Shown: positions 37,072 through 56,844 of the stretch, piece by piece
Layout: every line of letters begins with the position of its first letter
Numbering within the stretch: the stretch's first letter is position 1
Assembly (NCBI GenBank): GCA_963819655.1
Contig: CAWFXA010000002.1
Location: 384,001 to 448,000 of the forward strand
Direction: 5' to 3'
From: an uncultured Chloroflexia bacterium
GTDB lineage: Bacteria > Chloroflexota > Limnocylindria > Limnocylindrales > CSP1-4
DNA length: 64,000 nucleotides
The notes under the pieces: model-generated
What the model saw: only the letters and a program-made list of their open reading frames with translations
Databases searched by the model: none
What the model was told of the DNA's origin: nothing
Position numbers and translations under genes: made by a program

Positions 37072-38063
37072 CCAAGATCGGCTACGCGGCGATGATGGAG
37101 CAGTTCCACCCGACCGACCTCCTCGACTGGTGCGCCCAGGCGGAGGCGGCGGGCTTCGAGGCCGGCTTCATGGTCTCGGAGCATTTCCATCCGTGGACCC
37201 CGCAGCAGGGCCAGAGCGGCTTCGCCTGGGCGTTCATGGGCGCGCTCGGACTGCGGACGTCATTGCGGTTCGGGACGGCGGTCACGTGCCCCGGTTTCCG
37301 CTACCACCCGGCAGTCATCGCGCATGCCGCGGCCACGCTCGGCGCGATGTACCCGGGTCGCTTCTACCTCGGTCTGGGCGCCGGCGAGGCGCTCAACGAG
37401 CACGTCATCGCGCCGGTATGGCCGGAGGTGCCGATCCGTAGCGCGATGATGTTCGAGGCGATCGAGGTCATCAGCAAGCTGTTCAGCGGTGACGTCGTGC
37501 GCCACGACGGCAAGTACTTCACGCTCGAGCGGGCCAAGCTCTACACCAGGCCGCCGGACGACCAGCGCGTGCCGATCTATGTCGCCACCGCCGGGCCGAT
37601 CAACGCGAAGAAGACCGGCAAGTTCGCCGACGGACTCATCACGGTCGGTGCGGCCGACGACAAGATGAAGATGATCTGGGGCAAGTTCGAGGAGGGCCGC
37701 AGCGAAGTCGGCAAGGACGGGCCCGGCCCCAAGTTCCTCCAGCTCCACATCTCCTGGGCGCCCACCGACGACGAGGCGATGGAGAACGCCCTGGTCGAAT
37801 GGCCCAACGGCGGCATGGCGTTCTTCCCCAAGCAGGACATCAAGAACCCCGAGGACTTCGCCGGGATAGCCAAGCTGGTGCGCGCCGAGGACTTCACGAA
37901 CCGGGTGATGATCAGCGGCGACCTCGAGGAGCATTGCCGGCATATCCAGCACTACGTCGACATGGGCTACGACGAGATCCACCTCCACAACGTGGGGCGC
38001 AACCAGGCCGAGTTCATCGAGACGTTCGGGCGGGAGGTCCTACCCAACCTCAGGCTCGACTGA
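37068..38063 (+). CDS. F420-dependent LLM-class oxidoreductase (G6PDH-like family)
   Basis: EQFHP, SEHFHPW, TAVTCP..RYHPAVIA, LGLGAGEALNEH. Confidence 0.88.
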   Translation: MTKIGYAAMMEQFHPTDLLDWCAQAEAAGFEAGFMVSEHFHPWTPQQGQSGFAWAFMGALGLRTSLRFGTAVTCPGFRYHPAVIAHAAATLGAMYPGRFYLGLGAGEALNEHVIAPVWPEVPIRSAMMFEAIEVISKLFSGDVVRHDGKYFTLERAKLYTRPPDDQRVPIYVATAGPINAKKTGKFADGLITVGAADDKMKMIWGKFEEGRSEVGKDGPGPKFLQLHISWAPTDDEAMENALVEWPNGGMAFFPKQDIKNPEDFAGIAKLVRAEDFTNRVMISGDLEEHCRHIQHYVDMGYDEIHLHNVGRNQAEFIETFGREVLPNLRLD

Positions 38064-41451: not shown

Positions 41452-41817
41452 TTGGAACAGCTCTGGTACGTCGTGGGCTTCGCCTTCGCCGGCGTGTCGT
41501 TCGTCTTCCTGACGATCGGTGCCGCGTGGTTGGTCTCACACCGCAATCGCGGCGACGTCCACAAGGGCCTGCCGTACGAATCGGGCATCGATACCTATGG
41601 CGATACGCACGGCCGGTTCGGGCTGTCGTTCTACATCTACGCCCTGCTGTTCGTGGCCTTCGACATCGAGGTGATCTTCATCTACCTCTGGGCGATCGTC
41701 TTCCAGGATCCCGCGCTGAACCCGGCGGCGCTGTTCGTGAGCATGGTGGTCTTCGTGGCGATCCTGCTCCTGGGCCTCGCCTACGCCTGGCGGAAGGGGG
41801 CCCTGACGTGGCGCTGA
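41452..41817 (+). CDS. nuoA: NADH-quinone oxidoreductase subunit A
   Basis: [31 protein letters not shown]; TTG start after GGGAG. Confidence 0.95.
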
Positions 41818-42563
41818 AGACGACACCGGATGGCCTCGGGGCCGGCCCCTCGGACGAGACCGCGATCTCGTCGGACGTCCCGGCCCAGCCCGGCCTCCCG
41901 GCGACCCGCCCGTCCGACGCTGTCGCGAATCCGATCGTCGTGCGGAACTCGCTCTGGCAGGCGGCGGATCCGTCCGCGTACGACGGCGGCCGCCCCACCG
42001 ACATCACCCACCTCGCGGAGCTCGAGGCGAGTGGCGCGGGCCGGCGCGACGATGCGCGCTGGAGTGGCGTCCTCGAGGTCATCCCCACCAAGGCCGACTA
42101 CGTGCTCGACCTCATCCGGATGAACAGCCTGTGGCCACTCCTGTCGGGGCTCGCGTGCTGCGCGATCGAGATGATGTCGGCGGCGACCTCCAAGAACGAC
42201 ATGGACCGGTGGGGCATGTTCCCGTTCCGGGCGAGCCCGCGTCAGGCCGACGTGCTCATCGTCGCCGGCACGCTGACGACGAAGATGGCCGGGCCACTGG
42301 TCCGCCTCTGGGAGCAGATGCCGGAGCCGAAGTGGTGCGTCGCGATGGGCGACTGCACGTGCTCGGGTGGCCGGTACAAGCGGAGCTACTCGACGGTCGA
42401 GGGGATCGATCGGGTCATGCCGGTGGACGTCTACGTCCCGGGCTGCCCGCCCCGGCCAGAGGGCCTCATCTACGGGATGATGAAGCTCCAGCAGCTGGTC
42501 AAGGACCGTCGCGGTCATTGGCCGGAGCGAGCCATCGGCCCGACCGTCCCCGAGCAGGTCTGA
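41808..42563 (+). CDS. nuoB: NADH-quinone oxidoreductase subunit B
   Basis: [37 protein letters not shown]. Confidence 0.96.
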
Positions 42564-42565
42564 CC

Positions 42566-43114
42566 GTGGACCGAGCCTTCAAGGCCCGCCTCGAGCGGCG
42601 GTTCGGCGAGCAGCTGACGGGCCCCATCCGGCAGCGCCACGACGAGACGGAGATCCGGATCGGGCCGGGCGACGTGACCCAGGTCATCACCGCGCTCCAC
42701 GACGAGCCGGAGTTCGGCTTCGAATTCCTGGCCGACCTGGCCGGGGTGGATACGGGCGACGTCATGCAGGTCGTGTACCACCTGTGGAGCGCGACCACGC
42801 CCGACTGGCTTCGGGTCATCGCCGACGGCCTGCCGCGCGAGGACCCGCGCGTCCCGTCGGTGACTTTCATGTGGAAGGGCGCCGAGTGGATGGAACGCGA
42901 GGCCTACGACATGTTCGGCATCACGTTCGAAGGCAATCGCGACCTGCGCCGCATCTACCTCCCTCCCGACTACACGAGCTTCCCTCTCCGAAAGGACTTC
43001 TACCTTCCGGACGACGCGGCCCGTTCCCCGGGCGCGGGCGTCCGACCCATGGAACGGACGCACACCCCACGCGAGACCCCGGCGACGGCGAACGTCCGTC
43101 GGGGCGGTGCGTGA
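42566..43114 (+). CDS. nuoC: NADH-quinone oxidoreductase subunit C
   Basis: VVYHL, WMEREAYDMFGITFEG, FPLRKDF. Confidence 0.95.
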   Translation: MDRAFKARLERRFGEQLTGPIRQRHDETEIRIGPGDVTQVITALHDEPEFGFEFLADLAGVDTGDVMQVVYHLWSATTPDWLRVIADGLPREDPRVPSVTFMWKGAEWMEREAYDMFGITFEGNRDLRRIYLPPDYTSFPLRKDFYLPDDAARSPGAGVRPMERTHTPRETPATANVRRGGA

Positions 43115-43142
43115 CCTCCCGCGCGAACGGCAAGGACCTGCG

Positions 43143-44408
<1,266 letters not shown>

Positions 44409-44586: not shown

Positions 44587-45936
44587 ATGACTGTGATCGG
44601 GCGGTCGTGGAGCAGGCTGACGCTGCCGGGGAAGGTCGTGTTCACGGTCGTCCCGCTATTGCTGCTGCTGACGATCGGGGCGATCGCGCTGATCGTGATC
44701 TTCGGCCAGGCGATCGTCGACATCCTCGTCGCCAACCTGCCGATCGTCCGCTTCGTCGTCGCCGTCACGGTCATCCTGATCGCGACCGTCCCGACCGCGT
44801 TCCTGATCATCTACATGGAGATGAAGATCATCGCTCTGATGAATCTTCGGATCGGGCCGGACCGGGTCGGGCCGTTCGGGTCGCTCCTGTCAACGGTCCA
44901 CGGGTTGAAGGTCCTCATGAAGGAGGACTTCACGCCGACCGGCGCGGATTCGCTGGTCTTCACGTGGGCGCCGGTCGTCGTCTACCTCGCGAGCGTCCTG
45001 TCGCTGCTCGTCATCCCGTTCGCACCCGGCTTGTTCGGGTATGACCTCAATCTCGGGCTGCTGTATTTCTTCGCGATCGGCGGCCTGGCCGTGGTCGGCC
45101 TGCTGATGGCCGGCTGGTCGAGCTACAACAAGTACTCGCTCCTGGGCGGATTGCGCGCGGCGGCCCAGGTCATCAGCTACGAGATCCCGCTGACGCTGTC
45201 GGTCGTCGGCCTGATGCTCCTGGCCGGGACGATGAGCCTGAACACGCTCGTCGAGAACCAGACCGGCTGGTTCACCGACTGGTACATCTTCCAGCAGCCG
45301 CTCGGGGCTCTCATCTTCTTCATCGCGGCTACCGCCGAGGCGAACCGCACCCCGTTCGACCTGACCGAGGCCGACTCGGAGATCGTCGCCGGGTTCGCGA
45401 CCGAGTACTCGGGCATGCGGTTCGGGTTCTTCTTCTTTGCCGAGTACGTGAACGTGTTCATCGTCTCGGCCCTGTTCGTCACGCTCTTCCTGGGTGGCTG
45501 GAATGCGCCGTTCCCGTGGCCATGGCCGGTCGAGCTGAACATCGATCCAGCGTCGTTCAACATCGGCCTGCTGTTCATCCTCGGCCTGGTGCCGGTCGTC
45601 CTGACGCTGTTGTTCGGCGCGCCCTTCTACCTGCTGAACTCGCGCATCAGATGGTGGCAGGCGCTGCTCATCGGGTTCGTTCTTGCGAACCTGTTCATCG
45701 TCACGCTGCTCGGCGCGTGGGCGTACCTCGGACTGCCGTGGGTCGCCGGTATCCTCTGGTTCATGCTCAAGACCTACACGCTCGTGTTCACGTTCGTGTG
45801 GATGCGCGGCACCTTGCCCCGGGTCCGGATCGACCAGCTGATGGACTTCGCGTGGAAGTGGCTGCTGCCGGTGTCGCTGCTCAACCTGTTCGTGACGGCC
45901 GGCGCGATCGTCGTCATCAAGGGACTGGGTCGATGA
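44587..45936 (+). CDS. nuoH: NADH-quinone oxidoreductase subunit H (extra TM segments)
   Basis: RIGPDRVGP, NKYSLLGGLR, QVISYE, NRTPFDLTEADSE, RGTLPRVRIDQL. Confidence 0.96.
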   Translation: MTVIGRSWSRLTLPGKVVFTVVPLLLLLTIGAIALIVIFGQAIVDILVANLPIVRFVVAVTVILIATVPTAFLIIYMEMKIIALMNLRIGPDRVGPFGSLLSTVHGLKVLMKEDFTPTGADSLVFTWAPVVVYLASVLSLLVIPFAPGLFGYDLNLGLLYFFAIGGLAVVGLLMAGWSSYNKYSLLGGLRAAAQVISYEIPLTLSVVGLMLLAGTMSLNTLVENQTGWFTDWYIFQQPLGALIFFIAATAEANRTPFDLTEADSEIVAGFATEYSGMRFGFFFFAEYVNVFIVSALFVTLFLGGWNAPFPWPWPVELNIDPASFNIGLLFILGLVPVVLTLLFGAPFYLLNSRIRWWQALLIGFVLANLFIVTLLGAWAYLGLPWVAGILWFMLKTYTLVFTFVWMRGTLPRVRIDQLMDFAWKWLLPVSLLNLFVTAGAIVVIKGLGR

Positions 45937-46610
45937 GCTTCGTCCCCGGCCTCGGCATCGTGAAGGGAATGGCCCTGACCCTTCGGCGCTTCTTCGAGCC
46001 GAAGGTCACGATCATGTATCCGGAGGTGCGGCTCGACGTCCCGCACAAGTTCCGCGGCCGTCTGCAGCTGCTCTACGACGAGTGGGGCACGCTCAAGTGC
46101 GAGACCTGCTTCCAGTGCGCCCAGGCGTGTCCGATCGAGTGTATCGACATGGGCGGCATCGACACGCGCGGCCGCTACCACGTCCACTGGGGAGCGCCCG
46201 AGACCTATGGCGAGCGACGCGAGGAATCGGCGATGCGCCGCTCGGGCCGGCCCGTCCCGGACCCCGCCTATCGGCCGTTCGAGCCGATCGCGATGGGCGA
46301 GGTAGACCGCGTCCTCGAGGAGTACGACCACGACCCGGCGCGGATGCTCGACATCCTCGAGGCGACCCAGGACGCTTACGGCTATCTCCCCGTAGCTGCC
46401 CTCAAGCGCATCAGCCACGCGACCGGCGCCTGGTACGCGATGATCTACGGTACCGCCAGCTACTACGCCCACCTGCGGTTTGAGCCGGCGAGCGCCAGCG
46501 AGCAGGCAGCGGCGGTCGCCGAGCATCGGCCAGCCGAGGGGACATACCTGTCTGCCCTCGGCGCGGCGCTCGAGGGAGGCGGTCGCCCGGGCGCGCCCGC
46601 CCGCGCCTGA
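45933..46610 (+). CDS. nuoI: Fusion: NuoI N-half (one CxxCxxCxxxCP) + NuoE N-terminal helical domain
   Basis: KGMALTL..F...VTIMYPE...FRG...KCETCFQCAQACP then 'LDILEATQDAYGYLP...YGTASYY'; no second ferredoxin motif and no NuoE 2Fe-2S cysteines. Confidence 0.85.
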   Translation: MSFVPGLGIVKGMALTLRRFFEPKVTIMYPEVRLDVPHKFRGRLQLLYDEWGTLKCETCFQCAQACPIECIDMGGIDTRGRYHVHWGAPETYGERREESAMRRSGRPVPDPAYRPFEPIAMGEVDRVLEEYDHDPARMLDILEATQDAYGYLPVAALKRISHATGAWYAMIYGTASYYAHLRFEPASASEQAAAVAEHRPAEGTYLSALGAALEGGGRPGAPARA

Positions 46611-46612
46611 CG

Positions 46613-47908
46613 ATGGTGACCCTGCTCAAGACCCCGGCCAGTTGGCCGCGGATCCTGCTGGCCCGAGCCGGCGAGAAGGACCCCACCGACCTCGATGCCG
46701 CCGTCGCTGCCGGGGCCTTCGACGGCCTGCGGCGCGCGATCCGCGACCTCGGCGGGGCCGCCACGATCGCGACCATCGCGGCCTCCGGCCTGCGCGGGCG
46801 TGGCGGCGCGGGCTACCCGACCGGTGACAAATGGCGGACGGCGGCAGACACCGATGCCGACCGCCGGTACGTCGTCGCCAACGGCTACGGCGCCGACCCG
46901 GCGTCGCACACCGATCGAACGCTCATGCTGCGCGACCCGTTCGCGGTCATCGAAGGGACCGCCATCGCGGCCAGCGCCATCGGTGCGACCGAGGCCTTCA
47001 TCGCGGTCCGCGCCGAGGACGCCGACGTCGTCGCCCGGTTGTCTGCGGCGATCGGCGCGGCGACCGATGCAGGCTTCATCGGCGCCGACGTCCTCGGGTC
47101 GGGCCGTGACCTGTGGCTCACGGTCCGCCCGGTGCAGGGCGCATACATGCTCGGCGAGGAGACGGTCCTGCTCAAGGCGCTCGAAGGCAAGCGCGGCCAG
47201 CCCGAGCAGAAGCCACCGCATCCCGCCACTGTCGGCCTGTACGAGCGCCCGACGGTCGTCAACAACGTCCAGACGCTGGCCGCCGTGCCGTGGATCGTGC
47301 GCTCGGGCGCCGACGCCTACCGCGCGACCGGTTCGACCAGGTCGTCGGGCACCGTCCTCGTGCAGCTCCGGGCGCCCGGCAAGCAGGGCGTCGCCGAGGT
47401 CCCGCTGGGCACGCCGCTTCGCGACATCGTGAAGCTCGGCGGGAAGATGCCGGCCGGCCGGACGCTCCAGGCGGTGCTCATCGGCGGGCCGTCCGGCGGC
47501 CTGCTCCCGCCCGATGCGCTCGATACCCCGTACGACTTCGGGACGCTCCGCGAGGCGGGCGCCCATCTCGGCTCGGGCTCCGTTGTCGCGGTCGACGACC
47601 GTACGGACCTGCTCGAGCTGGTCGGGGTGCTGATGCGGTTCTGCGCGAACGAGGCATGCGGCAAGTCGATCCCCTGCCGCATCGGGACGAAGCGGCTGGC
47701 CGAGATCGTCGCCCGTCGCGAGGACGGGCTCCTCCGCCCGGTCGACACCCAGCTGGCGGCCGACCTGGCACACGACATCGTCGAGTCCGCCCTGTGCGAC
47801 CACGAGCGGCTCGCGACCCTCCCGCTCACGAGCGGGATGCGATACTTCGGGTCCGACTTCGACCCCGCCAACCGACCCCCGCCGGTCGCGACCGAGGCCG
47901 CCCGATGA
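46613..47908 (+). CDS. nuoF: NuoF-like flavoprotein subunit (degenerate motifs)
   Basis: GLRGRGGAGYPTGDKW, GEETVLL, PTVVNNV, GGPSGG, CGKSIPCRIG. Confidence 0.88.
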   Translation: MVTLLKTPASWPRILLARAGEKDPTDLDAAVAAGAFDGLRRAIRDLGGAATIATIAASGLRGRGGAGYPTGDKWRTAADTDADRRYVVANGYGADPASHTDRTLMLRDPFAVIEGTAIAASAIGATEAFIAVRAEDADVVARLSAAIGAATDAGFIGADVLGSGRDLWLTVRPVQGAYMLGEETVLLKALEGKRGQPEQKPPHPATVGLYERPTVVNNVQTLAAVPWIVRSGADAYRATGSTRSSGTVLVQLRAPGKQGVAEVPLGTPLRDIVKLGGKMPAGRTLQAVLIGGPSGGLLPPDALDTPYDFGTLREAGAHLGSGSVVAVDDRTDLLELVGVLMRFCANEACGKSIPCRIGTKRLAEIVARREDGLLRPVDTQLAADLAHDIVESALCDHERLATLPLTSGMRYFGSDFDPANRPPPVATEAAR

Positions 47909-50553
47909 CCGACACCCTGGCCCGCCCAGAGCGCCTGCCCTCCGGGGCCCCGACCGAGACGTCGGCGTCGCCGGACTCGCTCGCCGAGCGCCTGCTCGAC
48001 ACCCAGGCGCCACAGCGACCGCAGTCGACTCCGCGCATCCGGATCGAGGTCGATGGTCGCGTCGTCGAGGGGTTCGAGGGCCAGACGATCCTCGAGGTCT
48101 GCCGCGACAACGGCATCGAGATCCCGACGCTGTGCTACGAGCCAAAGCTGCCCGGGTTCGGGGCATGCCGGATGTGCGTCGTCGAGGTCGAAGGCGAGGA
48201 ACACCCGCCGATCTCGTGCTCGCGCTCGTGCGAGGACGGGATGAAGGTCGAAACGCAAACAGAGGAGATCCGTCGCCTGCGCCGCACCAACCTCGAGCTG
48301 ATCTTCTCCGACCACAACGCCTACTGCCTGCCGCCCTGCCAGAACAAGTGCCCGAGCCACATCGACATCCCGGGCTTCCTCAAGGCGAATGCCGAGGGCG
48401 ACTGGCGGGAGAGCACCCGCATCTTCAAGCGGACGATCCCCTTCCCGTCGGTGCTCGGGCGGGTCTGCCCGGCGCCGTGCGAGGAGCACTGCCGGCGCGA
48501 CGAGGTCGACGAGGCGATCGCGATCCGCGACACCCACCGCTACGCGGGCGACCAGGTCCTCAAGTCGATGCTCGACGAGGACGTCGATCCGCCCGTGCCG
48601 TTCGAGCGCCAGGCTCCGTCCGGGCGACGGGCCGCCGTCATCGGCTCGGGCCCGGCCGGCATGGCCGCGGCGTACTACCTGCTCATCGCCGGTCACGACG
48701 TCACGGTCTTCGAGCGCGACCCGTCGCCGGGCGGCATGCTCCGCTACGGCATCCCGCAGTACCGGCTGCCGAAGGTCGAGGTGCTCGAGGCCGAGTACGA
48801 GTCGATCTCGCGGCTCGGCGGCACGGTCGTCTGCAACGCCGGTCTGGGCCGAGACTTCACGCTCGACGACCTGACGAACCAGGGCTTCGATTCGGTCATC
48901 GTGGCGATCGGCTGCTACGACACGAACAAGCTCGGGATCCCCAACGAGGACGCCGACGGCGTCATCGACGGCCTCGAATACCTGCGAACGGCGACGCTCG
49001 GGCTGCCGTATCCGGGCCACGTCGGCAAGCGCGTCGTGGTGATCGGCGGCGGCTTCACCTCGATGGACTGCTCGCGGACGTCGATCCGCCAGGGCGCGGC
49101 CGAGGTCACGCTCGTGTACCGCCGCGACATGAAGGACATGCCCGCGGCCGACGAGGTCCACGAGGCGATCGAGGAAGGCGTCACCACGATCTTCCAGGCG
49201 GGCCCGACGCGCGTCATCACGAACCCCAAGACCGGAGCCGTGACCGGCGTCGAGTTCATCCGGATGCAGCTCGGCGAGCCGGACGCCTCCGGCCGGCGGC
49301 GCCCGGAGCCGGCATCCGGCACCGAATTCACGATCCCCTGCGATCGCGTGCTGCTGGCCATCGGTCAGGGTCCCGAGCTCGACTGGATCGGGACGCCCGG
49401 CAATGAGGGGCCCGAGGCGACGAAGCAGCGTCGTCTCAAGGCGGACGCGGTCACGTTCTGGACGGGCCGGCCCGGCGTCTTCGGCAGCGGCGATGTGCGG
49501 ATCGGCGCGGCCACGGTCGTCGAGGCGGTCGCAGAAGGCCGGCGCGCGGCCTACGCCGTGGACGCCTACATGAAGGGCATGGACCTCGACGCCATCCGCA
49601 CGCGCCAGACGCTGGCCGAGCCGCAGCCCGAGTTCCTCTCGATCGTGCCGTTCACCGGCGAGATCAAGGAGCCGCGCTATCGGATGACGCCACTGCCCGC
49701 GGAGGCGCGCAACGACAGCTACATCGAATACGAGCTGCCGTATACGCGCGAGGCGGCGATGGCGGAATCGACTCGCTGCCTGCAGTGCACGTGTGAGGCG
49801 ATCGGGTTCTGCGACCTGCGCCGGCTCGGGATCGAGTACGGCACGACCCTCCAGACGCTCGAGCCGCAGTACCACCAAGGCGCCGGCTATCGGAGCGTGA
49901 CCGAGAACCGGTTCACCGGCATCAACCACGACTACATCCGCGACGACTCCCATGCGTTCATCCTGCGCGAGCCGTCGCGCTGCATCGACTGCGGGCGCTG
50001 CGCGAACGTGTGCGCCGAGGTCGTCGGGGCGGCGTGCTACGACTTCATGCGCATCGGCTTCGACACGCTGGTCACGACGCCGCTCGACATGAGCCTCAAC
50101 GACACCCCGTGCGTGTCGTGCGGTCGCTGCGCGGAGACCTGCCCGACCGGCGCCCTGATGCCCAAGCCGCGCATCCTCGAGAAGTACGAGGTCGACGAGA
50201 GCCGCTGCATCCTGTGCGGCATCTGCGTCGACGCCTGCCCATACGACGCGCTGCGCGACGGTGCCGACATCGAGCTCGCCCACACCGGCCGCTCGGAGCC
50301 GACGATCGACCTCATGGCGCTCGCCGCGATCGACCGCGAGACCGAGGTGACCTACATCCAGCGCGAGCGCGACTGGCTCACCCGGGCGCGTGCCGAAGGC
50401 CGCGTGGTCGACCAGTCGCGACTGCTGCCGATGCTGCCCCCGGCGATCGATGGCGTGCCGAGCAACGGCGGACGCTCGAACGGGAACGGCCACGGTCACG
50501 GTCACGACGGTCATGGGGCGGTCGCCGCGCTCGGCCCTGGCCGGCACGAGTAG
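47905..50553 (+). CDS. NuoG-like Fe-S protein with inserted GltD/NfnB-type FAD/NADPH domain and C-terminal NuoI half
   Basis: IPTLC...GACRMC...SC (2Fe-2S); PCQNKCP, CPAPCEEHC, IGSGPAG, IGGGFTSMD..VYRR; CIDCGRC...CVSCGRCAETCP; YEVDESRCILCGICVDACP. Confidence 0.88.
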   Translation: MTDTLARPERLPSGAPTETSASPDSLAERLLDTQAPQRPQSTPRIRIEVDGRVVEGFEGQTILEVCRDNGIEIPTLCYEPKLPGFGACRMCVVEVEGEEHPPISCSRSCEDGMKVETQTEEIRRLRRTNLELIFSDHNAYCLPPCQNKCPSHIDIPGFLKANAEGDWRESTRIFKRTIPFPSVLGRVCPAPCEEHCRRDEVDEAIAIRDTHRYAGDQVLKSMLDEDVDPPVPFERQAPSGRRAAVIGSGPAGMAAAYYLLIAGHDVTVFERDPSPGGMLRYGIPQYRLPKVEVLEAEYESISRLGGTVVCNAGLGRDFTLDDLTNQGFDSVIVAIGCYDTNKLGIPNEDADGVIDGLEYLRTATLGLPYPGHVGKRVVVIGGGFTSMDCSRTSIRQGAAEVTLVYRRDMKDMPAADEVHEAIEEGVTTIFQAGPTRVITNPKTGAVTGVEFIRMQLGEPDASGRRRPEPASGTEFTIPCDRVLLAIGQGPELDWIGTPGNEGPEATKQRRLKADAVTFWTGRPGVFGSGDVRIGAATVVEAVAEGRRAAYAVDAYMKGMDLDAIRTRQTLAEPQPEFLSIVPFTGEIKEPRYRMTPLPAEARNDSYIEYELPYTREAAMAESTRCLQCTCEAIGFCDLRRLGIEYGTTLQTLEPQYHQGAGYRSVTENRFTGINHDYIRDDSHAFILREPSRCIDCGRCANVCAEVVGAACYDFMRIGFDTLVTTPLDMSLNDTPCVSCGRCAETCPTGALMPKPRILEKYEVDESRCILCGICVDACPYDALRDGADIELAHTGRSEPTIDLMALAAIDRETEVTYIQRERDWLTRARAEGRVVDQSRLLPMLPPAIDGVPSNGGRSNGNGHGHGHDGHGAVAALGPGRHE

Positions 50554-50555
50554 AC

Positions 50556-51149
50556 GTGCGCGCGAAGCTGCCCCAGATCATCTTCGCGCTCCTGATCATG
50601 GGCGCAGTCCTCGGCATCGCTGCCCTCCTGGTCGTCGTCCTCCACCAGGACTGGGAGGACGCGCTCCTGTGGATCCTCGGAGTCGTGATGCTGGGCGCGG
50701 GGCTCCTGGTCGTGACGATGCGCGACATCATCCGCTGCGGCCTGGCCATGATCGTCTGCTTCCTCGCGCTGGCCGGCATCTATGTCCTGATGGGCGTCCC
50801 GCTCCTCGGGGCGGCGCAGGTCATCGTGTACATCGGCGCGATCAGCGTGCTGGTCCTGTTCGCCATCATGCTGACCCAGACCAAGGACGCCCCGAGCCGG
50901 CTCGTGTTCCAGACCCAGGCCGGTCCGGCGGCGATCGCGGCGGTCGTGGTCGCGATCCTCATCGCCCTCGCCGTGGGCGCCACGGACTGGCATGAGGTCG
51001 CCCGCCGGGCGCGCCTGAGCACGACCGAGATGGCGCGGGTCCTGTTCGAGCAGTTCGTGTTCCCGTTCGAGATCGTCAGCGTGCTGCTGCTGGCCGCCGT
51101 GATCGGCGGCGTGTTCCTGGCCAAGCGCGAGCCGGGCGGTCCGTCGTGA
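50556..51149 (+). CDS. nuoJ: NADH-quinone oxidoreductase subunit J
   Basis: [34 protein letters not shown]. Confidence 0.93.
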
Positions 51150-51463
51150 GCGACAGCCTCGACACCTACCTGATCCTGTCCGGGATCCTCTTCGCGATCG
51201 GCACGTTCGGCTTCCTCGCGCGGCGCAACGCGATCAGCATGCTCATGTCGATCGAGCTGATGCTCAACGCGGTCAACCTGACGATCGTGGCTTTCGGCCT
51301 GTTCGGGCCCCGCCCCGACGCGATCGCCCAGGGCGCGGTGTTCGCGCTGATGGTCATGGCGGTCGCTGCGGCTGAGGCGACGGTCGGGCTGGCGATCGTC
51401 ATCGCGATCTACCGCAACAAGAGGACTCCGCTAGTCGATGAGTACGACTCCATGAGGCAGTGA
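51146..51463 (+). CDS. nuoK: NADH-quinone oxidoreductase subunit K
   Basis: [28 protein letters not shown]. Confidence 0.96.
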
Positions 51464-51704: not shown

Positions 51705-53696
51705 GTGACGATCGAGACGCTGCTGCCGCTCCTGCTCGTCCTGCCGATGGCGGGCTTCCTCATCACGGCGCTGATCGGCCGGCGGCTGGGCAAGCAGGCG
51801 CACTGGATCCCGGTCGGGGTCATCTTCCTGGCCTGGATCGTCGCGATGCTGGCGGTGTGGAACGTGCTGACAGGGGCGGCGCCCTTGCTGCCCGGCTCAG
51901 AGGACACGCACGGTTACGTCGTCGGGCCGTGGGAGTGGATCCCGGCCGGCGGCTTCCACGTCGAGCTCGGGATCCTGGTCGACCCGCTGACCGCCTGCCT
52001 GCTGATCGTCGTCACCACGATCGGCCTGCTGGTCCACGTCTACTCGATCGGCTACATGAGCCACGACCCCGGCTACTGGCGGTTCTTCGCGTACATGAAC
52101 CTGTTCATGTTCTCGATGCTGCTGCTGGTGCTCGCCGACAACTGGCTGGTCCTGTTCGTGGCGTGGGAGCTGGTCGGCCTGTCGAGCTACCTGCTCATCG
52201 GCTTCTGGTACCGCAAGCGGAGCGCGGCTCTTGCCGCCAAGAAGGCGTTCATCGTCAACCGGGTCGGCGATGTCGGGTTCGCCCTCGGGATCATGGCCAT
52301 CTTCCTGAACACGGGCACGCTGAACGTTCGCGAGTCGATCGAGATCCTGATCAACCCGACGCTCGTCGCCTTCCCGATCCCCGTCCCGATCGTCGCGCTG
52401 TTGGTCTTCGCCGGTGCCATGGGCAAGAGCGCCCAGTTCCCGCTCCACGTGTGGCTGCCGGACGCGATGGAAGGCCCGACTCCGGTGTCGGCGCTCATCC
52501 ACGCGGCCACGATGGTCAACGCCGGCGTGTACCTCGTGGCCCGTGCCAACCCGCTGTTCGCGGCCGCGCCGTCCACGATGGTCGTCGTCGCGGCGATCGG
52601 CATCTTCACGGCGATCCTGGCCGCGTCGATCGCGATGACCCAGACCGACATCAAACGGGTGCTCGCGTACTCGACGCTATCCCAGCTCGGCTACATGTTC
52701 GCGGCGCTCGGGGTCGGCGCGTTCACCGCGGCGATCTTCCACCTCATGACCCACGGCTTCTTCAAGGGCCTGCTGTTCCTCGGATCGGGCTCGGTCATCC
52801 ACGCCGTCCACGACGAGCAGGACATGCGCCGGATGGGCGGCCTGGCGAAGAGGATCCCCATCACCTACGCCACGATGCTCGTGGGCTCGATCGCGATCTC
52901 CGGGATCCCACCGCTTGCCGGATTCTTCTCGAAAGACGAGATCCTCGGCGAGGCCTTCAAGTTCGGCTTCTACTGGGTCTGGGCGGTCGGCCTGTTCGTG
53001 GCGCTGCTGACCGCGTTCTACATGTTCCGGCTCATGGGTCTGACCTTCTGGGGCGTGTTCCGCGGCCCAAAGGAGATCTGGGACCGCATCCACGAATCAC
53101 CGGCAGTCATGACCGTGCCGCTGATCCTGCTGGCGATCCCGTCGGTGCTCCTGGGCATCGCCCTCGGTCTGCCGTTCGGCGACAGCACCATCCACCGCTG
53201 GCTCGAGCCGGTGTTCCACCACGCGACCGAGATGCTCGCCTTGCCGCACGAGCCGTACGCCCTGTTCGGCATCGACGGCGGTCTGATCCTCGCCAGTGTG
53301 ACCGTCGCCGTGATCGGCGTGGTCCTTGCCTGGCGCTACTTCGGCGTCGAACTGGGCGGGTTGCGGCTGCCGGCCCGGCCGGAGGTCGTCCGCGAGATCA
53401 GCGCGAGGCCCGGTCTATCCTTCCTGTACCGCGCCTCGCTCAACAAGTGGTGGTTCGATGAGCTCAACCACCTGCTCTTCATCGTCATCGGCGGAAGGCT
53501 GGCGCAGGCGATCTGGTGGTTCGACCGCGAGGTCATCGACGGGACCGTCAACGGCATCGGCAGCGCGACCATCTCGGTCGGCCGCGGCCTTCGCCGCGTG
53601 CAGACCGGTCGGGTCCAGAACTACGCGCTCGGGATCGCCCTCGGGCTGATCGTGATGGCCGGGTCATACCTGCTTCTCGCGGGGAACGGCGGATGA
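51705..53696 (+). CDS. nuoL: NADH-quinone oxidoreductase subunit L
   Basis: WELVGLSSYLLIGFW, GKSAQFPLHVWLPDAMEGPTPVSALIHAATMV, QTGRVQNY. Confidence 0.97.
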   Translation: MTIETLLPLLLVLPMAGFLITALIGRRLGKQAHWIPVGVIFLAWIVAMLAVWNVLTGAAPLLPGSEDTHGYVVGPWEWIPAGGFHVELGILVDPLTACLLIVVTTIGLLVHVYSIGYMSHDPGYWRFFAYMNLFMFSMLLLVLADNWLVLFVAWELVGLSSYLLIGFWYRKRSAALAAKKAFIVNRVGDVGFALGIMAIFLNTGTLNVRESIEILINPTLVAFPIPVPIVALLVFAGAMGKSAQFPLHVWLPDAMEGPTPVSALIHAATMVNAGVYLVARANPLFAAAPSTMVVVAAIGIFTAILAASIAMTQTDIKRVLAYSTLSQLGYMFAALGVGAFTAAIFHLMTHGFFKGLLFLGSGSVIHAVHDEQDMRRMGGLAKRIPITYATMLVGSIAISGIPPLAGFFSKDEILGEAFKFGFYWVWAVGLFVALLTAFYMFRLMGLTFWGVFRGPKEIWDRIHESPAVMTVPLILLAIPSVLLGIALGLPFGDSTIHRWLEPVFHHATEMLALPHEPYALFGIDGGLILASVTVAVIGVVLAWRYFGVELGGLRLPARPEVVREISARPGLSFLYRASLNKWWFDELNHLLFIVIGGRLAQAIWWFDREVIDGTVNGIGSATISVGRGLRRVQTGRVQNYALGIALGLIVMAGSYLLLAGNGG

Positions 53697-55348
53697 CGAA
53701 CCCGTTCGGGATCCTCACGGTCGTGACGTTCCTGCCGTTGGTCGGAGCACTGGTCGTCGCGATCCTGCCGAGCCGTTGGACTCGCCCGATCGCGCTCGCG
53801 TTCGCGCTGGCAACGTGGGTGGTCTCGTTGATGATGCTGATCGGCTACCTGCCGAACCGCGCAGGCAGCCAGTTCCTCTTCCTCGAGGCGTTCGACTGGA
53901 TCCCGATCTTCGGCATCCAGTACAAGCTCGGCGTCGACGGCCTGTCCGCCGCCCTCGTCGTCCTCACGACGACGTTGACCTGGATCTGCATCCTCGCGTC
54001 GTGGGTCCCGATCCAGACCCGGATCAAGGAATTCATGATCTCCTTCCTCGTGCTCGAGGTCGGGATGATCGGAGTGTTCCTGGCGCTCGACCTCTTCCTC
54101 TTCTACATCTTCTGGGAGATCGTGCTCGTCCCGATGTACCTCATCATCGGGATCTGGGGCGGCGCCAACCGCATCTACTCGACGATCAAGTTCGTGCTGT
54201 ACACGCTGGTCGGGTCGCTGCTCATGCTCGTGGCGATCCTCGCGACAGCATTCGCCTACCAGTCGGCCACCGGCTCATGGACCGGCGCGTTCGACCTGGT
54301 CGCCCTCCGCGCGCACGTCCAGACCGTCGGCTTCGCGCCGGTCCTCCAGGTCGGGGCGTTCCTCGCGTTCTTCCTGGCGTTCGCGATCAAGGTCCCGATG
54401 TTCCCGTTCCATACGTGGCTGCCTGATGCGCACACCGATGCCCCGACCGCGGGATCGGTCATCCTGGCCGGCGTCCTGCTCAAGCTCGGGGCGTACGGGT
54501 TCCTGCGGTTCGCGCTGCCGCTCTATCCGGACGCGGCCCATACGTTCGCCCCGACGATCATCGTCCTGTCGCTCATCGCGATCATCTATGGCGCGATCGT
54601 CGCCCTCGTCCAGCCCGACCTCAAACGGCTGGTGGCCTACTCCTCGGTCAGCCACATGGGCTTCGTGACCCTCGGCACATTCGTGTTCACCGAGCAGGGC
54701 ATCCAGGGCGCCATCCTCCAGATGATCAACCACGGCCTGATCACGGGAGGCCTGTTCCTGCTCGTGGGCATCATCTATGAGCGAACCCACGACCGGACGA
54801 TCGCGAAGATGGGCGGGCTCGCGGCCCGGATGCCGCTGTGGGCCGCGACGCTCGGGTTCTTCGTGTTCGCGTCGGCCGGCCTGCCCGGGCTGTCCGGTTT
54901 CGTGGGCGAGTTCCTCAGCCTGCTGGGGACGTTCATCGTCAATCCGCCGGCCGCGGCGGTCGCGACGTTCGCCATGATCCTCGGGGCGGGCTATCTCCTG
55001 TACATGTACGGTCGGGTCGTCTTCGGCGAGGTGTCCGATTTCATCGTGGGCCTGGGGGGCCACATCACGGACATGACGCCGACCGAGATCCTGACGCTCG
55101 CGCCGCTGGCGACGCTGATCGTGGTGTTCGGCATCCAGCCGGGTCTCTTGCTGACGCTCGTGCAGGGTTCCGTCACGGACACCATCGAGGCTGTGCGTGA
55201 CGGGGTCCCGCTCCCCATCAGCACCGAGGTCGTCGTGATCGGCCTGGGGTTGGTCATCGTGCTCGTCGTCGCGCGCACGATCTCCGCCGCGCTGAGCTCG
55301 CGGTCAGAGCGGACCGGGGTCGTGACCGAAGGCGGAGCCGCGCATTGA
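53693..55348 (+). CDS. nuoM: NADH-quinone oxidoreductase subunit M
   Basis: FYIFWE, IKVPMFPFHTWLPDAH, LKRLVAYSSVSHMG, GLPGLSGFVGEF. Confidence 0.97.
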   Translation: MTNPFGILTVVTFLPLVGALVVAILPSRWTRPIALAFALATWVVSLMMLIGYLPNRAGSQFLFLEAFDWIPIFGIQYKLGVDGLSAALVVLTTTLTWICILASWVPIQTRIKEFMISFLVLEVGMIGVFLALDLFLFYIFWEIVLVPMYLIIGIWGGANRIYSTIKFVLYTLVGSLLMLVAILATAFAYQSATGSWTGAFDLVALRAHVQTVGFAPVLQVGAFLAFFLAFAIKVPMFPFHTWLPDAHTDAPTAGSVILAGVLLKLGAYGFLRFALPLYPDAAHTFAPTIIVLSLIAIIYGAIVALVQPDLKRLVAYSSVSHMGFVTLGTFVFTEQGIQGAILQMINHGLITGGLFLLVGIIYERTHDRTIAKMGGLAARMPLWAATLGFFVFASAGLPGLSGFVGEFLSLLGTFIVNPPAAAVATFAMILGAGYLLYMYGRVVFGEVSDFIVGLGGHITDMTPTEILTLAPLATLIVVFGIQPGLLLTLVQGSVTDTIEAVRDGVPLPISTEVVVIGLGLVIVLVVARTISAALSSRSERTGVVTEGGAAH

Positions 55349-56844
55349 ACGGCACCGACATCAGCGCGATCGCGCCGCTCATCGCCGCGGTGCTGACCGC
55401 GGCCGCGGTGCTGGTCGTGGACCTCGTCCGACCCGGCCGCAGCGGCCCGGCCGTCGCGACCGCCCTGATCGGGCTGGCGATCACTGCGTTCGTCACGATC
55501 CAGGTCGGCATGAGCACGCTGACGGCGTTCAACGGGACCTACAAGGTCGACGCGCTCAGCACGTTCCTCGACGTCCTGTTCATCTCGATCGTCGCCATGA
55601 CCATCGTCTTCGCGCCCGACTACCTGCTGCCGCGCAACCTGCCGATCGCCGAGTTCGCGACGGTCCTCATCTTCGCGATGAGCGGGGCCATGCTGATCGC
55701 CGGGTCGGCGGACCTGCTGCTGCTCTTCCTCGGGCTCGAGCTGATGGTGCTGCCGGGCTACCTCCTGGCGGGCTATCACAAGACCGACTCGTATTCGACC
55801 GAGGGGGCCATCAAGTACTTCCTCCTCGGCTCGTTCAGCTCGGCGATCTTCCTGTTCGGCGTGGCCTTCATCTGGGGCCTGACGGGGACGACGCTGATCA
55901 ACAGCACCGACCCGGCCCAGCCCGGCGTCGCGCAGGCGCTCGCGTCGGTGGTGGCTGGGACCGCGCCGCTGTCGGCGGGTCTGGCGATCGGGCTCGCGTT
56001 CCTGACCACGGGCGTCGCGTTCAAGATCGCCGCAGTCCCGTTCCACTACTGGACCCCGGACGCGTACCAGGGCTCGCCGACGCCGATCACCGGATACCTG
56101 TCGGTCGGACCGAAGATCGGCGCATTCGCGCTGATCCTGCGGCTCTTCGTGGAGGCGCTCGGGCCGCTGGCCGCGTGGTGGCTGCCGGTCATGATCGTCC
56201 TGGCCGCTCTGACGATGACGCTCGGCAACCTCGTCGCGCTCACCCAGGACAACGTCAAACGGATGCTCGCGTACAGCTCCATCGCCCACACCGGGTACAT
56301 GCTCGTCGGGCTGGCGGCGTACGCCGGCGGCCAGGTCCTCGGACTCGAGGGGCTCCTGTTCTACGGGGCGGCCTACACGTTCATGAACCTCGGGGCGTTC
56401 GCGGTGGTGTCGGCCGTCCAGAAGAGGGCGGGCGTCACGTCGTCGCTCGAGAACTTCTCGGGGCTCGTGCGCCGTGAACCGGGCCTGACGATCTTGATGA
56501 CCCTGTTCCTGTTGTCGCTGGTCGGCATCCCGCCGCTCGCCGGGTTCTGGGCGAAGGCCTATGTCATCCTCGCGGCCGTGCAGGCGGGCGGATCGCTGAC
56601 CGTGCTGGCGGTCCTCGTCGTCCTGAACGCCGCGGCGGCGGCGTTCTACTACCTGCGGGTCGTCGTGTACATGTGGATGCGCGACCCCGTCACAGACACG
56701 CCGCCGCTCACCCATGGGGCGCTCCTGTGGGGCGGGCTCGCCACCGCGACGGTGCTCACGCTGGTGTTCGGGCTGTTCCCATCGGTGTTCGAGATCGTGC
56801 AGCACGCCGCCGCCGCGATCTCGACCCTCCCGGGCGGGGGCTAG
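55345..56844 (+). CDS. nuoN: NADH-quinone oxidoreductase subunit N
   Basis: EGAIKYFLLG, FKIAAVPFHYWTPDAYQGSP, KRMLAYSSIAH, GIPPLAGFWAK. Confidence 0.97.
   Translation: MNGTDISAIAPLIAAVLTAAAVLVVDLVRPGRSGPAVATALIGLAITAFVTIQVGMSTLTAFNGTYKVDALSTFLDVLFISIVAMTIVFAPDYLLPRNLPIAEFATVLIFAMSGAMLIAGSADLLLLFLGLELMVLPGYLLAGYHKTDSYSTEGAIKYFLLGSFSSAIFLFGVAFIWGLTGTTLINSTDPAQPGVAQALASVVAGTAPLSAGLAIGLAFLTTGVAFKIAAVPFHYWTPDAYQGSPTPITGYLSVGPKIGAFALILRLFVEALGPLAAWWLPVMIVLAALTMTLGNLVALTQDNVKRMLAYSSIAHTGYMLVGLAAYAGGQVLGLEGLLFYGAAYTFMNLGAFAVVSAVQKRAGVTSSLENFSGLVRREPGLTILMTLFLLSLVGIPPLAGFWAKAYVILAAVQAGGSLTVLAVLVVLNAAAAAFYYLRVVVYMWMRDPVTDTPPLTHGALLWGGLATATVLTLVFGLFPSVFEIVQHAAAAISTLPGGG

Follow-up and report, generated by a model that had tools for sequence, protein, structure and literature searches.

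The operon in the window analysed here (the whole stretch of 64,000 nucleotides) encodes the sole respiratory complex I of this soil bacterium, and the NuoI subunit of this complex is split between two proteins. As the original prediction had proposed, complementary HMM matches show NuoI divided, its N-terminal half joined to a NuoE-like piece and its C-terminal half to the end of a NuoG-like protein. The complex is probably composed of an 11-subunit-type core (NuoA, B, C, D, H, J-N plus NuoI), in which NuoI is built from two polypeptides, and an NfnABC-like NAD(P)H input module. With the halves of this small iron-sulfur subunit fused to the first and last proteins of the inserted NADPH/NADH-oxidising module, the split NuoI would be a conserved, undescribed way to wire a new NADPH/NADH fuel inlet to the proton pump, and it recurs across hundreds of genomes.

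The genome (3.49 Mb, 3 contigs, 91% complete) has a single copy of nuoD, and its ORFs for subunits A, B, C, D, H, J, K, L, M and N lie in one operon with the Q-site and N2 motifs present. In translations and alignment, NuoB displays a CC/C/C pattern, which we take to be the N2 ligands, and NuoD displays 'GPQHPSTHG' and 'GYLHRG' stretches, presumably of the Q site. The genes are as follows.

41452..41817, forward strand: nuoA (ORF; as a tblastn query it matches nuoA of relatives)
41814..42563, forward strand: nuoB (ORF frame; start uncertain, N-terminal extension of ~80 residues; N2 ligands CC...C...C present)
42560..43114, forward strand: nuoC (translation; start approximate; tblastn matches are Complex1_30kDa genes of relatives)
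43107..44408, forward strand: nuoD (a 25-residue segment of a canonical NuoD is absent)
44587..45936, forward strand: nuoH (ORF; ATGA overlap with the I'E' gene)
45933..46610, forward strand: I'E' fusion, P0001, 225 aa (HMM and structure-chain matches)
46613..47908, forward strand: NuoF/NfnB-like flavoprotein core, P0002, 431 aa (HMM matches, NfnB alignment)
47905..50553, forward strand: G·I'' fusion, P0003, 882 aa, NfnA/StnC-like (HMM matches, 9bov_A alignment)
50556..51149, forward strand: nuoJ (GTG start, 2 nt past the G·I'' stop codon)
51146..51463, forward strand: nuoK (ORF)
51705..53696, forward strand: nuoL (ORF)
53693..55348, forward strand: nuoM (ORF; start at the Met at residue 60 of the listed ORF)
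55345..56844, forward strand: nuoN (ORF)

Gene junctions are tight: nuoH/I'E' and F/G overlap by ATGA, and the genes of I'E'/F and of G/nuoJ are 2 nt apart. The nuoB product is 57-58% identical to that of the nuoB adjoining I'E' in loci L027, L028 and L030. Contigs from RNA libraries map to the region; such libraries can contain DNA.

Within the two fusion proteins, we assigned the following parts.

45957..46178, forward strand: I', N-terminal NuoI half, P0001 residues 9-82 (NF004536 positions 13-87 of 180, E 1.9e-14; 7ar7_I 23-87)
46293..46496, forward strand: E', N-terminal helical part of NuoE/NfnC, P0001 residues 121-188 (PF01257 positions 2-63 of 145; 9bov_C 22-89)
48034..48261, forward strand: [2Fe-2S] NuoG-type N-terminal domain, P0003 residues 44-119 (PF13510, E 4.2e-21)
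48325..49575, forward strand: GltD-type domain, P0003 residues 141-557 (PF14691, PF07992, TIGR01318)
49960..50157, forward strand: dicluster domain, P0003 residues 686-751 (PF22117 Fer4_Nqo3; 9bov_A alignment)
50170..50304, forward strand: I'', C-terminal NuoI half, P0003 residues 756-800 (TIGR01971 positions 71-115; 8qby_I 93-145)

The coordinates and motifs of the original prediction were borne out: residues 55-67 of P0001 read KCETCFQCAQACP (46095-46133), and YEVDESRCILCGICVDACPYDAL starts at residue 761 of P0003 (50185). We scanned both proteins with NuoI, NuoE and ferredoxin models and repeated the NuoI scan on the whole genome. The NuoI model TIGR01971 is divided between them, with positions 1-63 of 121 matching P0001 residues 12-75 (E 1.3e-13, 50.6 bits) and positions 71-115 matching P0003 residues 756-800 (E 7.6e-12, 44.9 bits), so that neither half reaches the curated cut-off for a whole NuoI (113.05 bits). 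Genome-wide, in a genome that is 91% complete, the NuoI HMM found no separate intact nuoI over this cut-off, and its best two matches were the two halves. The two CxxCxxCxxxCP motifs of NuoI (N6a, N6b) are present only jointly, one per protein. The sole motif of I' (C56-C59-C62-C66-P67, 46095-46133) has Cys residues invariant in all 44 aligned sequences, and each of these 44 homologues of P0001 holds exactly one such motif; that of I'' (C768-C771-C774-C778-P779, 50206-50241) is likewise invariant in its Cys residues. NuoI-specific flanks accompany both, namely the N-terminal helix and loop in P0001 and the tail after the second motif in P0003, and alignment to the canonical NuoI of genome G373 shows that the variable inter-motif loop is where the two halves part.

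The C-terminal motif of P0003 is NuoI-like rather than that of a generic ferredoxin. The best single stretch for the tail (residues 750-882) is the NuoI chain 8qby_I 93-145, with 47 bits and a match that extends ~26 residues past the Cys motif, whereas polyferredoxins outscore NuoI in total only, through numerous stretches none of which exceeds 21 bits. The two preceding motifs, A (C693...C703) and B (C736...C746), have aligned counterparts in the dicluster domain of the solved 9bov_A, which makes this motif, C, the third and unpaired one of P0003. All 16 Cys of the I'E' and G·I'' motifs, the eight of A and B among them, are invariant (alignments A1 and A2). A, B and C keep a fixed spacing of 43/32 in 24 of the 25 complete G proteins; the sole exception, L052, matches only up to residue 719.

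The module between the NuoI halves differs from the E-F-G cassette that had been proposed. As a complex I NuoEFG N-module it was rejected, because the equivalog cut-offs are missed (TIGR01958, 19.2 vs 142.4 bits; TIGR01959, 344.6 vs 558.65 bits; TIGR01973, 84.7 vs 470.05 bits) and the closest proteins are solved Stn/NfnABC transhydrogenases. P0003 matches 9bov_A with 534 bits (residues 45-777 against 4-698 of 1178) and NF009454 with E 4e-165, under the 916-bit cut-off of that model; P0002 matches NfnB 9n5u_B with 317 bits, covering 117-521 of 602. The proposal had also omitted the GltD-type domain of P0003, which consists of Fer4_20 plus FAD and NAD(P)H Rossmann folds and has an invariant YRR (Y405, R406, R407), and a Pfam scan of P0003 gave no match to the Molybdopterin family. 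The NuoE part, too, is less than had been described: of the 145 positions in the NuoE family model PF01257, only 2-63 are matched, by P0001 residues 125-186 (residues 120-187 match 9bov_C 22-89), the protein has no Cys after C70, and the thioredoxin-like [2Fe-2S] domain is absent. P0002 retains the FMN loop and the GEET motif. Its second Cys of the N3/B1 motif is replaced by Ser (Ser, Thr or Ala across this clade), and the acidic 'DE.EPG' stretch of NuoF reads GYGADPAS; given these departures and its score, NADH input at the NuoF-like site may be impaired or altered. Judged by its sequence, the cassette is related to the soluble Stn/NfnABC transhydrogenases but pared down, lacking what electron bifurcation requires.

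In our model, the orphan motifs of I' and I'' would form one NuoI-type 2x[4Fe-4S] domain, with N6a and N6b both ligated across a protein-protein interface and the input module tied to the Q-module at both its ends. NADPH would donate hydride to the FAD in the GltD-like domain, and NADH would probably be a second donor, at the FMN of the NuoF-like protein. Electrons would then pass along the G chain, through the GltD clusters, the His/Cys cluster, the [2Fe-2S] cluster and the A+B dicluster domain, to the split NuoI clusters, and onward to N2 in NuoB, reducing (mena)quinone with proton pumping. The enzyme would not be electron-bifurcating, because it has neither the [2Fe-2S] cluster of NfnC type nor the extra clusters of NfnB. 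From these assignments we infer the physical reconstitution of NuoI, which nucleotides are used and which way the electrons run.

As to direction, complex I is reversible, and the same architecture might run mainly backwards, with pmf and quinol (e.g. from trace-gas or other quinone-level donors) reducing NADP+ at the GltD-like site for biosynthesis. The apparently altered NuoF site would suit such a mode, as would the GltD/NfnA-type site, which is an NADP(H) site in characterised relatives and makes NADPH in vivo, according to the parts of PMC11829005 drawn on here. We consider this unlikely: nothing in the window links the operon to quinone-level donors, and although the sequence does not reveal direction, forward NAD(P)H oxidation is the simpler role for the sole complex I in a heterotroph-sized genome of 3.5 Mb.

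A ferredoxin fold with one orphan motif in each protein suggests that both clusters would be ligated jointly by two polypeptides. Complex-structure prediction of both halves gave a weakly supportive 0.32 (runs 0.27, 0.32, 0.32) against 0.00 for the best of three controls, and a docking pass at such a score is more often wrong than right unless the pairing is already likely beforehand. The runs share at least 74% of contacts, with a partner pLDDT of at least 54. In the calibration, 58 of 80 solved complexes passed the mark, as did 2 of 110 mismatched pairs; with scores up to 0.60, only 7 of the 80 passed, and so did both mismatches; the prediction job was unlike the calibration in its custom alignments and two accompanying 4Fe-4S ligands, and with intact NuoI structures solved, a pass may reflect memory of the NuoI fold. 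Alternatively, the halves could stay apart, with motif C pairing with B inside P0003 as an ordinary dicluster (a polyferredoxin-like tail) and I' serving mainly as a membrane-proximal anchor that binds one cluster, helped by other residues, or none. By sequence alone this pairing is conceivable, because the Pfam dicluster model Fer4_7 also covers B and C as one domain (P0003 736-782, E 3.2e-11) and the 21-residue spacing from B to C is compatible with a classical ferredoxin, resembling clostridial ones; the low docking score also leaves room for it. We nevertheless hold it to be quite improbable, as B already has its partner in A (the two correspond, column for column, to the 9bov_A dicluster domain and to PF22117) and the stretch past C is NuoI-specific. 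It would moreover leave the P0001 motif, with four Cys that all 44 sequences share, without a partner, and the chain to N2 in the cell's only complex I would be broken without the two NuoI clusters.

The reconstituted subunit we favour can be compared with several known systems. Canonical NuoI/Nqo9/TYKY (NDUFS8) shares the N-terminal helix, 'YPE', 'RG' and first CxxCxxCxxxCP with P0001, the second motif and 'E-L-a/s' tail with P0003, and, in this clade, the gene position between nuoH and nuoJ; here, however, the one fold lies on two polypeptides, split in the inter-motif loop, with each half fused elsewhere. Among the solved transhydrogenases, 8oh5 is presumably StnABC of Sporomusa ovata. The NfnABC/StnABC enzymes of the Bfu family (PDB 9bov, 9n5u, 8oh5; described in part in PMC11829005) have three proteins in the same C-, B-, A-like order, an A subunit that combines an N-terminal [2Fe-2S] domain with a dicluster domain and carries a GltD-type FAD/NADPH domain within its His/Cys cluster region, and the FMN core recognised in P0002. 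Unlike them, the proteins here lack the FDH-like C-terminal domain (the 9bov_A alignment stops at 698), the N- and C-terminal cluster/Zn domains of the B subunit and the C1 cluster, and they carry NuoI halves at both ends. In Csac NfnABC, as outlined in PMC11829005, NADPH reduces the NfnA FAD and electrons move along A7-A6-A3-A2-A1 to B1, A4 and A5 form a side branch, and bifurcation takes place at [B1-FMN-C1]. The cassette here is also embedded in a nuo operon, in contrast to NfnABC/StnABC; the complex is therefore membrane-bound and most likely non-bifurcating. Mbx-like operons (Degli Esposti 2015, PMC4758237, as far as the passages cited go) likewise have a GltD-type NAD(P)H flavoprotein where NuoI would stand in a membrane complex related to complex I; there it is reported to replace NuoI in a hydrogenase-like (Mbx) complex, whereas here NuoI is kept, its two parts fused to either end of the module, and the operon is a genuine quinone-type Nuo one.

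The predicted Nuo-Bfu complexes of Schut et al. 2022 (PMC9304861) come close in another way, having a Bfu-type ABC cassette in the middle of a nuo cluster and a complex I-like quinone reductase. By the account given there, they occur in Deferribacteres, Proteobacteria, Planctomycetes and Nitrospirae and keep 14 genes, the cassette taking the place of E-F-G, and have a full bifurcating BC core; the passages cited mention neither a GltD domain nor a split NuoI. Homology of our cassette to BfuABC enzymes, together with that prediction, could suggest an electron-confurcating complex I that requires reduced ferredoxin plus NAD(P)H, as predicted for Geobacter-type operons, and we rate this as very improbable. 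By the definition of the BC core in the cited parts of PMC9304861 and PMC11829005 (extra cluster/Zn domains in B; a C subunit with [2Fe-2S] C1), such a core is lacking: E' is truncated and free of Cys, P0002 covers only the middle of NfnB, one B1 ligand is substituted, and non-bifurcating homologues lack B2-B5 according to Schut et al. (PMC9304861, in part). A full-text literature search found no paper describing the split-NuoI architecture, in agreement with the original prediction.

The layout is kept well beyond this genome. The fused I'E' gene occurs in 41 of 41 relatives, in 192 of 201 genomes of the class Limnocylindria (Chloroflexota; 125 of the 127 high-quality ones) and, among the matches listed, in at least 545 of 599 candidate stretches from species-representative genomes; we know of no cultured member. 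That the fusion is an assembly chimera, a frameshift or a decaying pseudogene is thus practically negligible as an explanation, given the same fused genes in many assemblies, open reading frames with coupled starts, and contigs from an independent sediment run that span the I'E'/F and G/nuoJ junctions.

I'E', F and G·I'' are adjacent in all 25 loci in which both fused genes are complete, and the block always lies in or near complex I parts. The proposed insertion of the cassette into nuoI of an ancestral 11-subunit complex I agrees with the gene order of one clade (f1, f2 and f4); in the other clade (f3, f10, f29 and f47) the block accompanies nuoB (and nuoD in f3) away from nuoA-C-D-H and nuoJ-N. 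Such a simple history is weakened because other Chloroflexota classes have three separate clusters (nuoB-I'E'-F-G·I'', nuoA-C-D-H and nuoJ-N). Outside Limnocylindria, nuoB is directly upstream of the block, and the nuoA-C-D-H cluster elsewhere in the same genomes has neither nuoB nor nuoI. The 25-residue deletion relative to canonical NuoD is common to all nine NuoD proteins of such complexes.

The complex I genes of the window form a single tightly coupled operon on the plus strand, running from nuoA through nuoN, as delineated from open reading frames and their translations:

41452-41817, plus strand, nuoA (open reading frame)
between nuoA and nuoD, plus strand, nuoB, then nuoC (open reading frames)
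43107-44408, plus strand, nuoD (open reading frame)
44587-45936, plus strand, nuoH (open reading frame)
45933-46610, plus strand, P0001, the I'E' fusion of the N-half of NuoI with a NuoE/NfnC-like piece (open reading frame)
46613-47908, plus strand, P0002, the NuoF/NfnB-like protein F (open reading frame)
47905-50553, plus strand, P0003, the G·I'' fusion of an NfnA/StnC-like protein with the C-half of NuoI (open reading frame)
from 50556, plus strand, nuoJ, then nuoK, nuoL, nuoM and nuoN, the last ending at 56844 (open reading frames)

The reading frames overlap by ATGA at the nuoH/P0001 and P0002/P0003 junctions and are separated by two-base spacers at the P0001/P0002 and P0003/nuoJ junctions.

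The original prediction held that NuoI is divided between P0001 and P0003, and this observation was confirmed. The motif positions it gave are exact (K55-P67 of P0001 at 46095-46133; Y761 of P0003 at 50185). Residues 12-75 of P0001 match positions 1-63 of the 121 in TIGR01971 (50.6 bits) and residues 756-800 of P0003 match positions 71-115 (44.9 bits); the two matches are complementary, and both lie below the 113-bit cut-off for a whole NuoI. P0001 further matches NF004536 (residues 9-82 to positions 13-87 of 180), and among solved structures its residues 9-73 align with the N-half of TYKY/NuoI chains. When NuoI was weighed against generic ferredoxins using the tail of P0003 alone (750-882), the best single stretch was to the NuoI chain 8qby_I (93-145, 47 bits), in a match that continues about 26 residues beyond the Cys motif; polyferredoxins outrank NuoI here only as the sum of many stretches, each of at most 21 bits. 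Alignment with the intact NuoI of genome G373, from an ordinary 14-gene complex I, places the split point within the variable loop that separates the motifs.

In a profile scan of the whole genome to which the window belongs (3.49 Mb, 3 contigs, 91% complete), no locus scored as high as the NuoI cut-off, and these halves were the top two hits. The genome carries nuoD in one copy and NuoF-like genes in two; the second NuoF-like gene belongs to a NuoE-NuoF-NuoG(N)-like cluster some 574 kb away from the nuo operon:

G000:C2, about 1,002,100-1,005,100 (L141 6101-9093), minus strand, full NuoE-like, NuoF-like and NuoG-N-terminal-like genes

The NuoG-N-terminal-like gene of this cluster ends in a molybdopterin-type Fe4S4 domain (Molybdop_Fe4S4), and the cluster is probably the diaphorase unit of a soluble dehydrogenase. 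We infer that it is ruled out as the true N-module of this complex I, given its distance of about 574 kb, its Molybdop_Fe4S4 end and the absence of an intact NuoI on which it could dock.

The P0001-type fusion was found in all 41 relatives, 40 of which match from residue 8 or earlier to residue 185 or later (G040 is a fragment). Across the class, 192 of 201 sampled genomes have it, as do 125 of the 127 genomes of high quality, and the nine genomes without a P0001 match are 66-91% complete. Among the 150 class matches listed, beside 76 further rows, four (G140, G221, G224 and a G156 piece) fall short of covering both I' and E'. The tallies for the relatives and the class take in eight unpublished genomes (G131, G122, G189, G156, G126, G102, G145, G182) and the phylum tally five more (G347, G380, G464, G411, G264); our other claims are independent of unpublished genomes. 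By public names the clade is Candidatus Limnocylindrales/Limnocylindria, and its proteins are publicly annotated as 'ferredoxin', 'NAD(P)H-dependent oxidoreductase subunit E', 'formate dehydrogenase major subunit' or 'FAD-dependent oxidoreductase'.

Protein searches at E <= 0.001 returned 2941 proteins for P0001 and 1104 for residues 690-882 of P0003. In a scan of species-representative genomes at least 545 stretches were confirmed, with 599 candidates among the matches listed, and the best 80 loci are all 72-99% identical to the window's gene. Searching 1.84 billion representatives with a profile brought up 75 clusters (E <= 1e-30), of which many are fragments; for ten more distant cluster representatives, the sole organism name obtained was that of a Limnocylindria bacterium. 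Three loci that share 72-84% identity with the gene of the window (L086, L122, L137) were labelled by their depositors as Patescibacteria group, Polarisedimenticolia and Sulfomarinibacteraceae; mislabelled or mis-binned contigs are a more likely explanation than true spread.

The P0001/P0002 and P0003/nuoJ junctions are each spanned by contigs from an independent sediment run, in a read-level check based on Logan contigs that were placed at 88% likeness and may stem from relatives. At the nuoH/I'E' junction, none of the 32 pieces listed (of 2872) bridges by 31 letters, and X2 record 25 ends at 45954. RNA-library contigs also lie over the region (for example X15 record 11 across F/G), which is not proof of transcription. 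The split-NuoI complex I is a real and widespread variant and, as far as the full-text searches show, hitherto undescribed.

The original interpretation of this arrangement stood only in part: NuoI is split, but the cassette between its halves is not NuoEFG. Instead, P0003 is nearest to the large subunit of NfnABC/Stn enzymes (soluble three-subunit transhydrogenases), and P0002 to the FMN core of NfnB/HydB/NuoF. Among solved structures, P0003 best matches 9bov_A (534 bits; residues 45-777 against 4-698 of 1178), followed by 9n5u_A (NfnA) and 8oh5_C. Its parts are, in order, a [2Fe-2S] domain, a GltD-type FAD/NAD(P)H domain that sits inside the His/Cys cluster region, and a dicluster domain with motifs A and B; where NfnA has an FDH-like C-terminal domain, P0003 has none and carries a third CxxCxxCxxxCP motif (motif C) and the NuoI tail instead. 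P0002 corresponds to the FMN core (317 bits to 9n5u_B 117-521 of 602) without the flanking cluster domains of NfnB. Of NuoE/NfnC, residues 121-188 of P0001 cover just the helical N-terminal portion (PF01257 positions 2-63 of 145; 9bov_C 22-89), and the E' part contains no Cys and therefore no [2Fe-2S] site.

The E' part differs among families. In f2, in one other genus of f1 (the window's family) and in f4, the thioredoxin-like NuoE domain is still complete (PF01257 up to position 138-144 of 145), with a conserved CxCxxC triplet and the second Cys pair absent:

L032 7475-8293, form with full-length E' domain
L060 448-1284, form with full-length E' domain
L041 446-1285, form with full-length E' domain

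This thioredoxin-like domain is lost in the window's genus, in f3 and in the forms outside the class. P0003 closes with a Gly/His-rich tail (NGNGHGHGHDGHG, window 50440-50550) that is present in L060 and absent in f2, f3 and f4.

According to PMC11829005, the FAD of NfnA in NfnABC is reduced by NADPH, electrons pass along A7-A6-A3-A2-A1 to B1 with A4 and A5 forming a side branch, and bifurcation requires the [B1-FMN-C1] flavobicluster. Because C1 is absent and one B1 ligand is replaced, bifurcation by the split-NuoI complex is very unlikely. Judged by position, the Nfn side branch would lead into the NuoI clusters.

The ligand pattern is strongly conserved. Exactly one CxxCxxCxxxCP motif occurs in 44/44 I'E' homologues, and motifs A, B and C of G keep a fixed spacing of 43/32 in 24 of 25 complete homologues (the exception being L052); all 16 Cys, the [2Fe-2S] Cys and the YRR of the NAD(P)H fold are invariant. 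The NuoF-like protein retains the FMN loop and the GEE(T/S) motif in all 43 sequences. In its N3/B1 motif (CxxCxxC), the second Cys is replaced by Ser/Thr in f1 (19/19) and f2 (1/1) and by Ala in f4 (12/12), and is retained in f3, f10, f29 and f47 (11/11). The altered site could house either a [3Fe-4S] cluster or one in which a residue other than Cys serves as a ligand. Among P0002 and its homologues in L009-L060, an extra Cys five residues upstream is seen in most f1/f2 proteins and in no f4 protein.

That I' and I'' pair is argued mainly on logical grounds: since homology to a solved structure pairs motifs A and B with each other, two invariant orphan motifs are left, each with a NuoI-specific flank and both in the cell's only complex I. 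We also predicted the complex from residues 1-118 of the P0001 alignment (A1) and residues 750-830 of the P0003 alignment (A2) with two 4Fe-4S clusters. The score was 0.32 (runs 0.27, 0.32 and 0.32), whereas the best of the three controls scored 0.00, with a contact agreement between runs of at least 74% and a partner pLDDT of at least 54. In calibration, 58 of 80 solved complexes and 2 of 110 mismatches came up to the mark, and at scores of 0.60 or less only 7 of those 80 complexes did so, along with both mismatches; our job was unlike the calibration in its self-made alignments and riding ligand. As intact NuoI has already been solved, the docking pass may be a memory of that fold, and the model weakly suggests that I' and I'' may dock. 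An AlphaFold2 model of whole P0003 (A2, 33 sequences) reached a mean pLDDT of 58.5, with residues 619-823 below 50, and gives no indication as to whether motif C is free or packed against A+B.

Complex I is regarded as having a fixed core subunit set, and to our knowledge the known input variants (NuoEFG, FpoF, ferredoxin-binding Ndh subunits and the predicted Nuo-Bfu) all dock on an intact NuoI. In this case a core Fe-S subunit is split and would serve as the covalent anchor of a borrowed NADPH-type flavoprotein module, in a form that is the sole complex I of a lineage plentiful in soil and fresh water. The proposed mechanism is plausible. If it is correct, we would expect a natural proton-pumping NADPH:quinone oxidoreductase, a pump that required engineering when made from E. 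coli complex I, and a natural experiment in Fe-S cluster ligation across subunit interfaces. Metabolic models of Limnocylindria are affected, given the present annotations.

Among related systems, Schut et al. 2022 (PMC9304861) predicted that other phyla have 'Nuo-Bfu' complexes whose E-F-G slot is taken by a full BfuABC core, and Degli Esposti 2015 reported Mbx-like operons with a GltD-related flavoprotein in place of NuoI (PMC4758237); a split NuoI is not part of either description in the accessible text of these papers. Full-text searches of the literature yielded no description of a split NuoI; the supplements of both papers list operon variants and could hold cases.

Three layouts surround the cassette. 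In f1, f2 and f4 the genes are colinear, A-B-C-D-H-I'E'-F-G·I''-J-K-L-M-N. In f3, of the same class, the order is nuoB-nuoD-I'E'-F-G·I'', with nuoD directly upstream of the block at 5/5 loci, nuoB ahead of it at one, nuoH not upstream, and nuo-like genes absent from the 3 kb downstream. In other classes (f10, f29 and f47; at least 11 genomes) the complex is encoded at three places, namely nuoB-I'E'-F-G·I'', then nuoA-C-D-H with no space for nuoB and neither nuoI nor nuoJ-N downstream, and nuoJ-K-L-M-N (checked in G373 and G341). These genomes also have a canonical operon, complete with an unsplit nuoI of its own (L038), and the copy counts agree. In G285 (f10) the nuoB-I'E' pair occurs twice (C23:47569-48144 and C36:22642-23214).

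The constant unit of the three layouts is therefore I'E'-F-G·I''. The nuoB adjoining I'E' in the dispersed layout is 57-58% identical to the window's nuoB, and all nine NuoD of split-NuoI complexes compared (window 43107-44408; L025, L026, L032-L037) have in common a 25-residue deletion when set against the canonical NuoD of G373 (L038). A tree of G separates (f1, f2, f4) from (f3, f10, f29, f47) with full support; as it has no outgroup, joins the clades on long branches and is rooted only at the midpoint, we draw no order of evolutionary events from it. The unit may have been inserted into the nuoI gene of an operon of 11 genes, or it may have begun as a separate head and been merged later. 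The dispersed B-I'E'-F-G·I'' clusters would, if the proposed mechanism is true, give insight into the evolutionary swapping of complex I modules.

A bolder reading, which we consider possible but rather doubtful, is that nuoB-I'E'-F-G·I'' constitutes a self-contained and transferable 'plug-in head': an Nfn-derived two-flavin NADPH/NADH module with its own NuoB and a two-subunit NuoI, its N6 clusters (N6a/N6b) ligated across the interface, that docks on a separate NuoA-C-D-H + NuoJ-N chassis. It would be the sole head, merged into one operon, in Limnocylindrales, and would stand beside a canonical 14-subunit complex I in other Chloroflexota. Were this so, it would be the first core complex I subunit built from two chains and the first modular exchange of a whole Fe-S wire, N2 included.

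The nuoB of the window has an apparent N-terminal extension of about 80 residues that is rich in Pro, Ala and Asp (about 41814-42110), a candidate feature whose start codon is uncertain. Upstream of the region, an open reading frame at window 37068-38063 resembles luciferase-like/F420-dependent oxidoreductases, judged from its translation alone.
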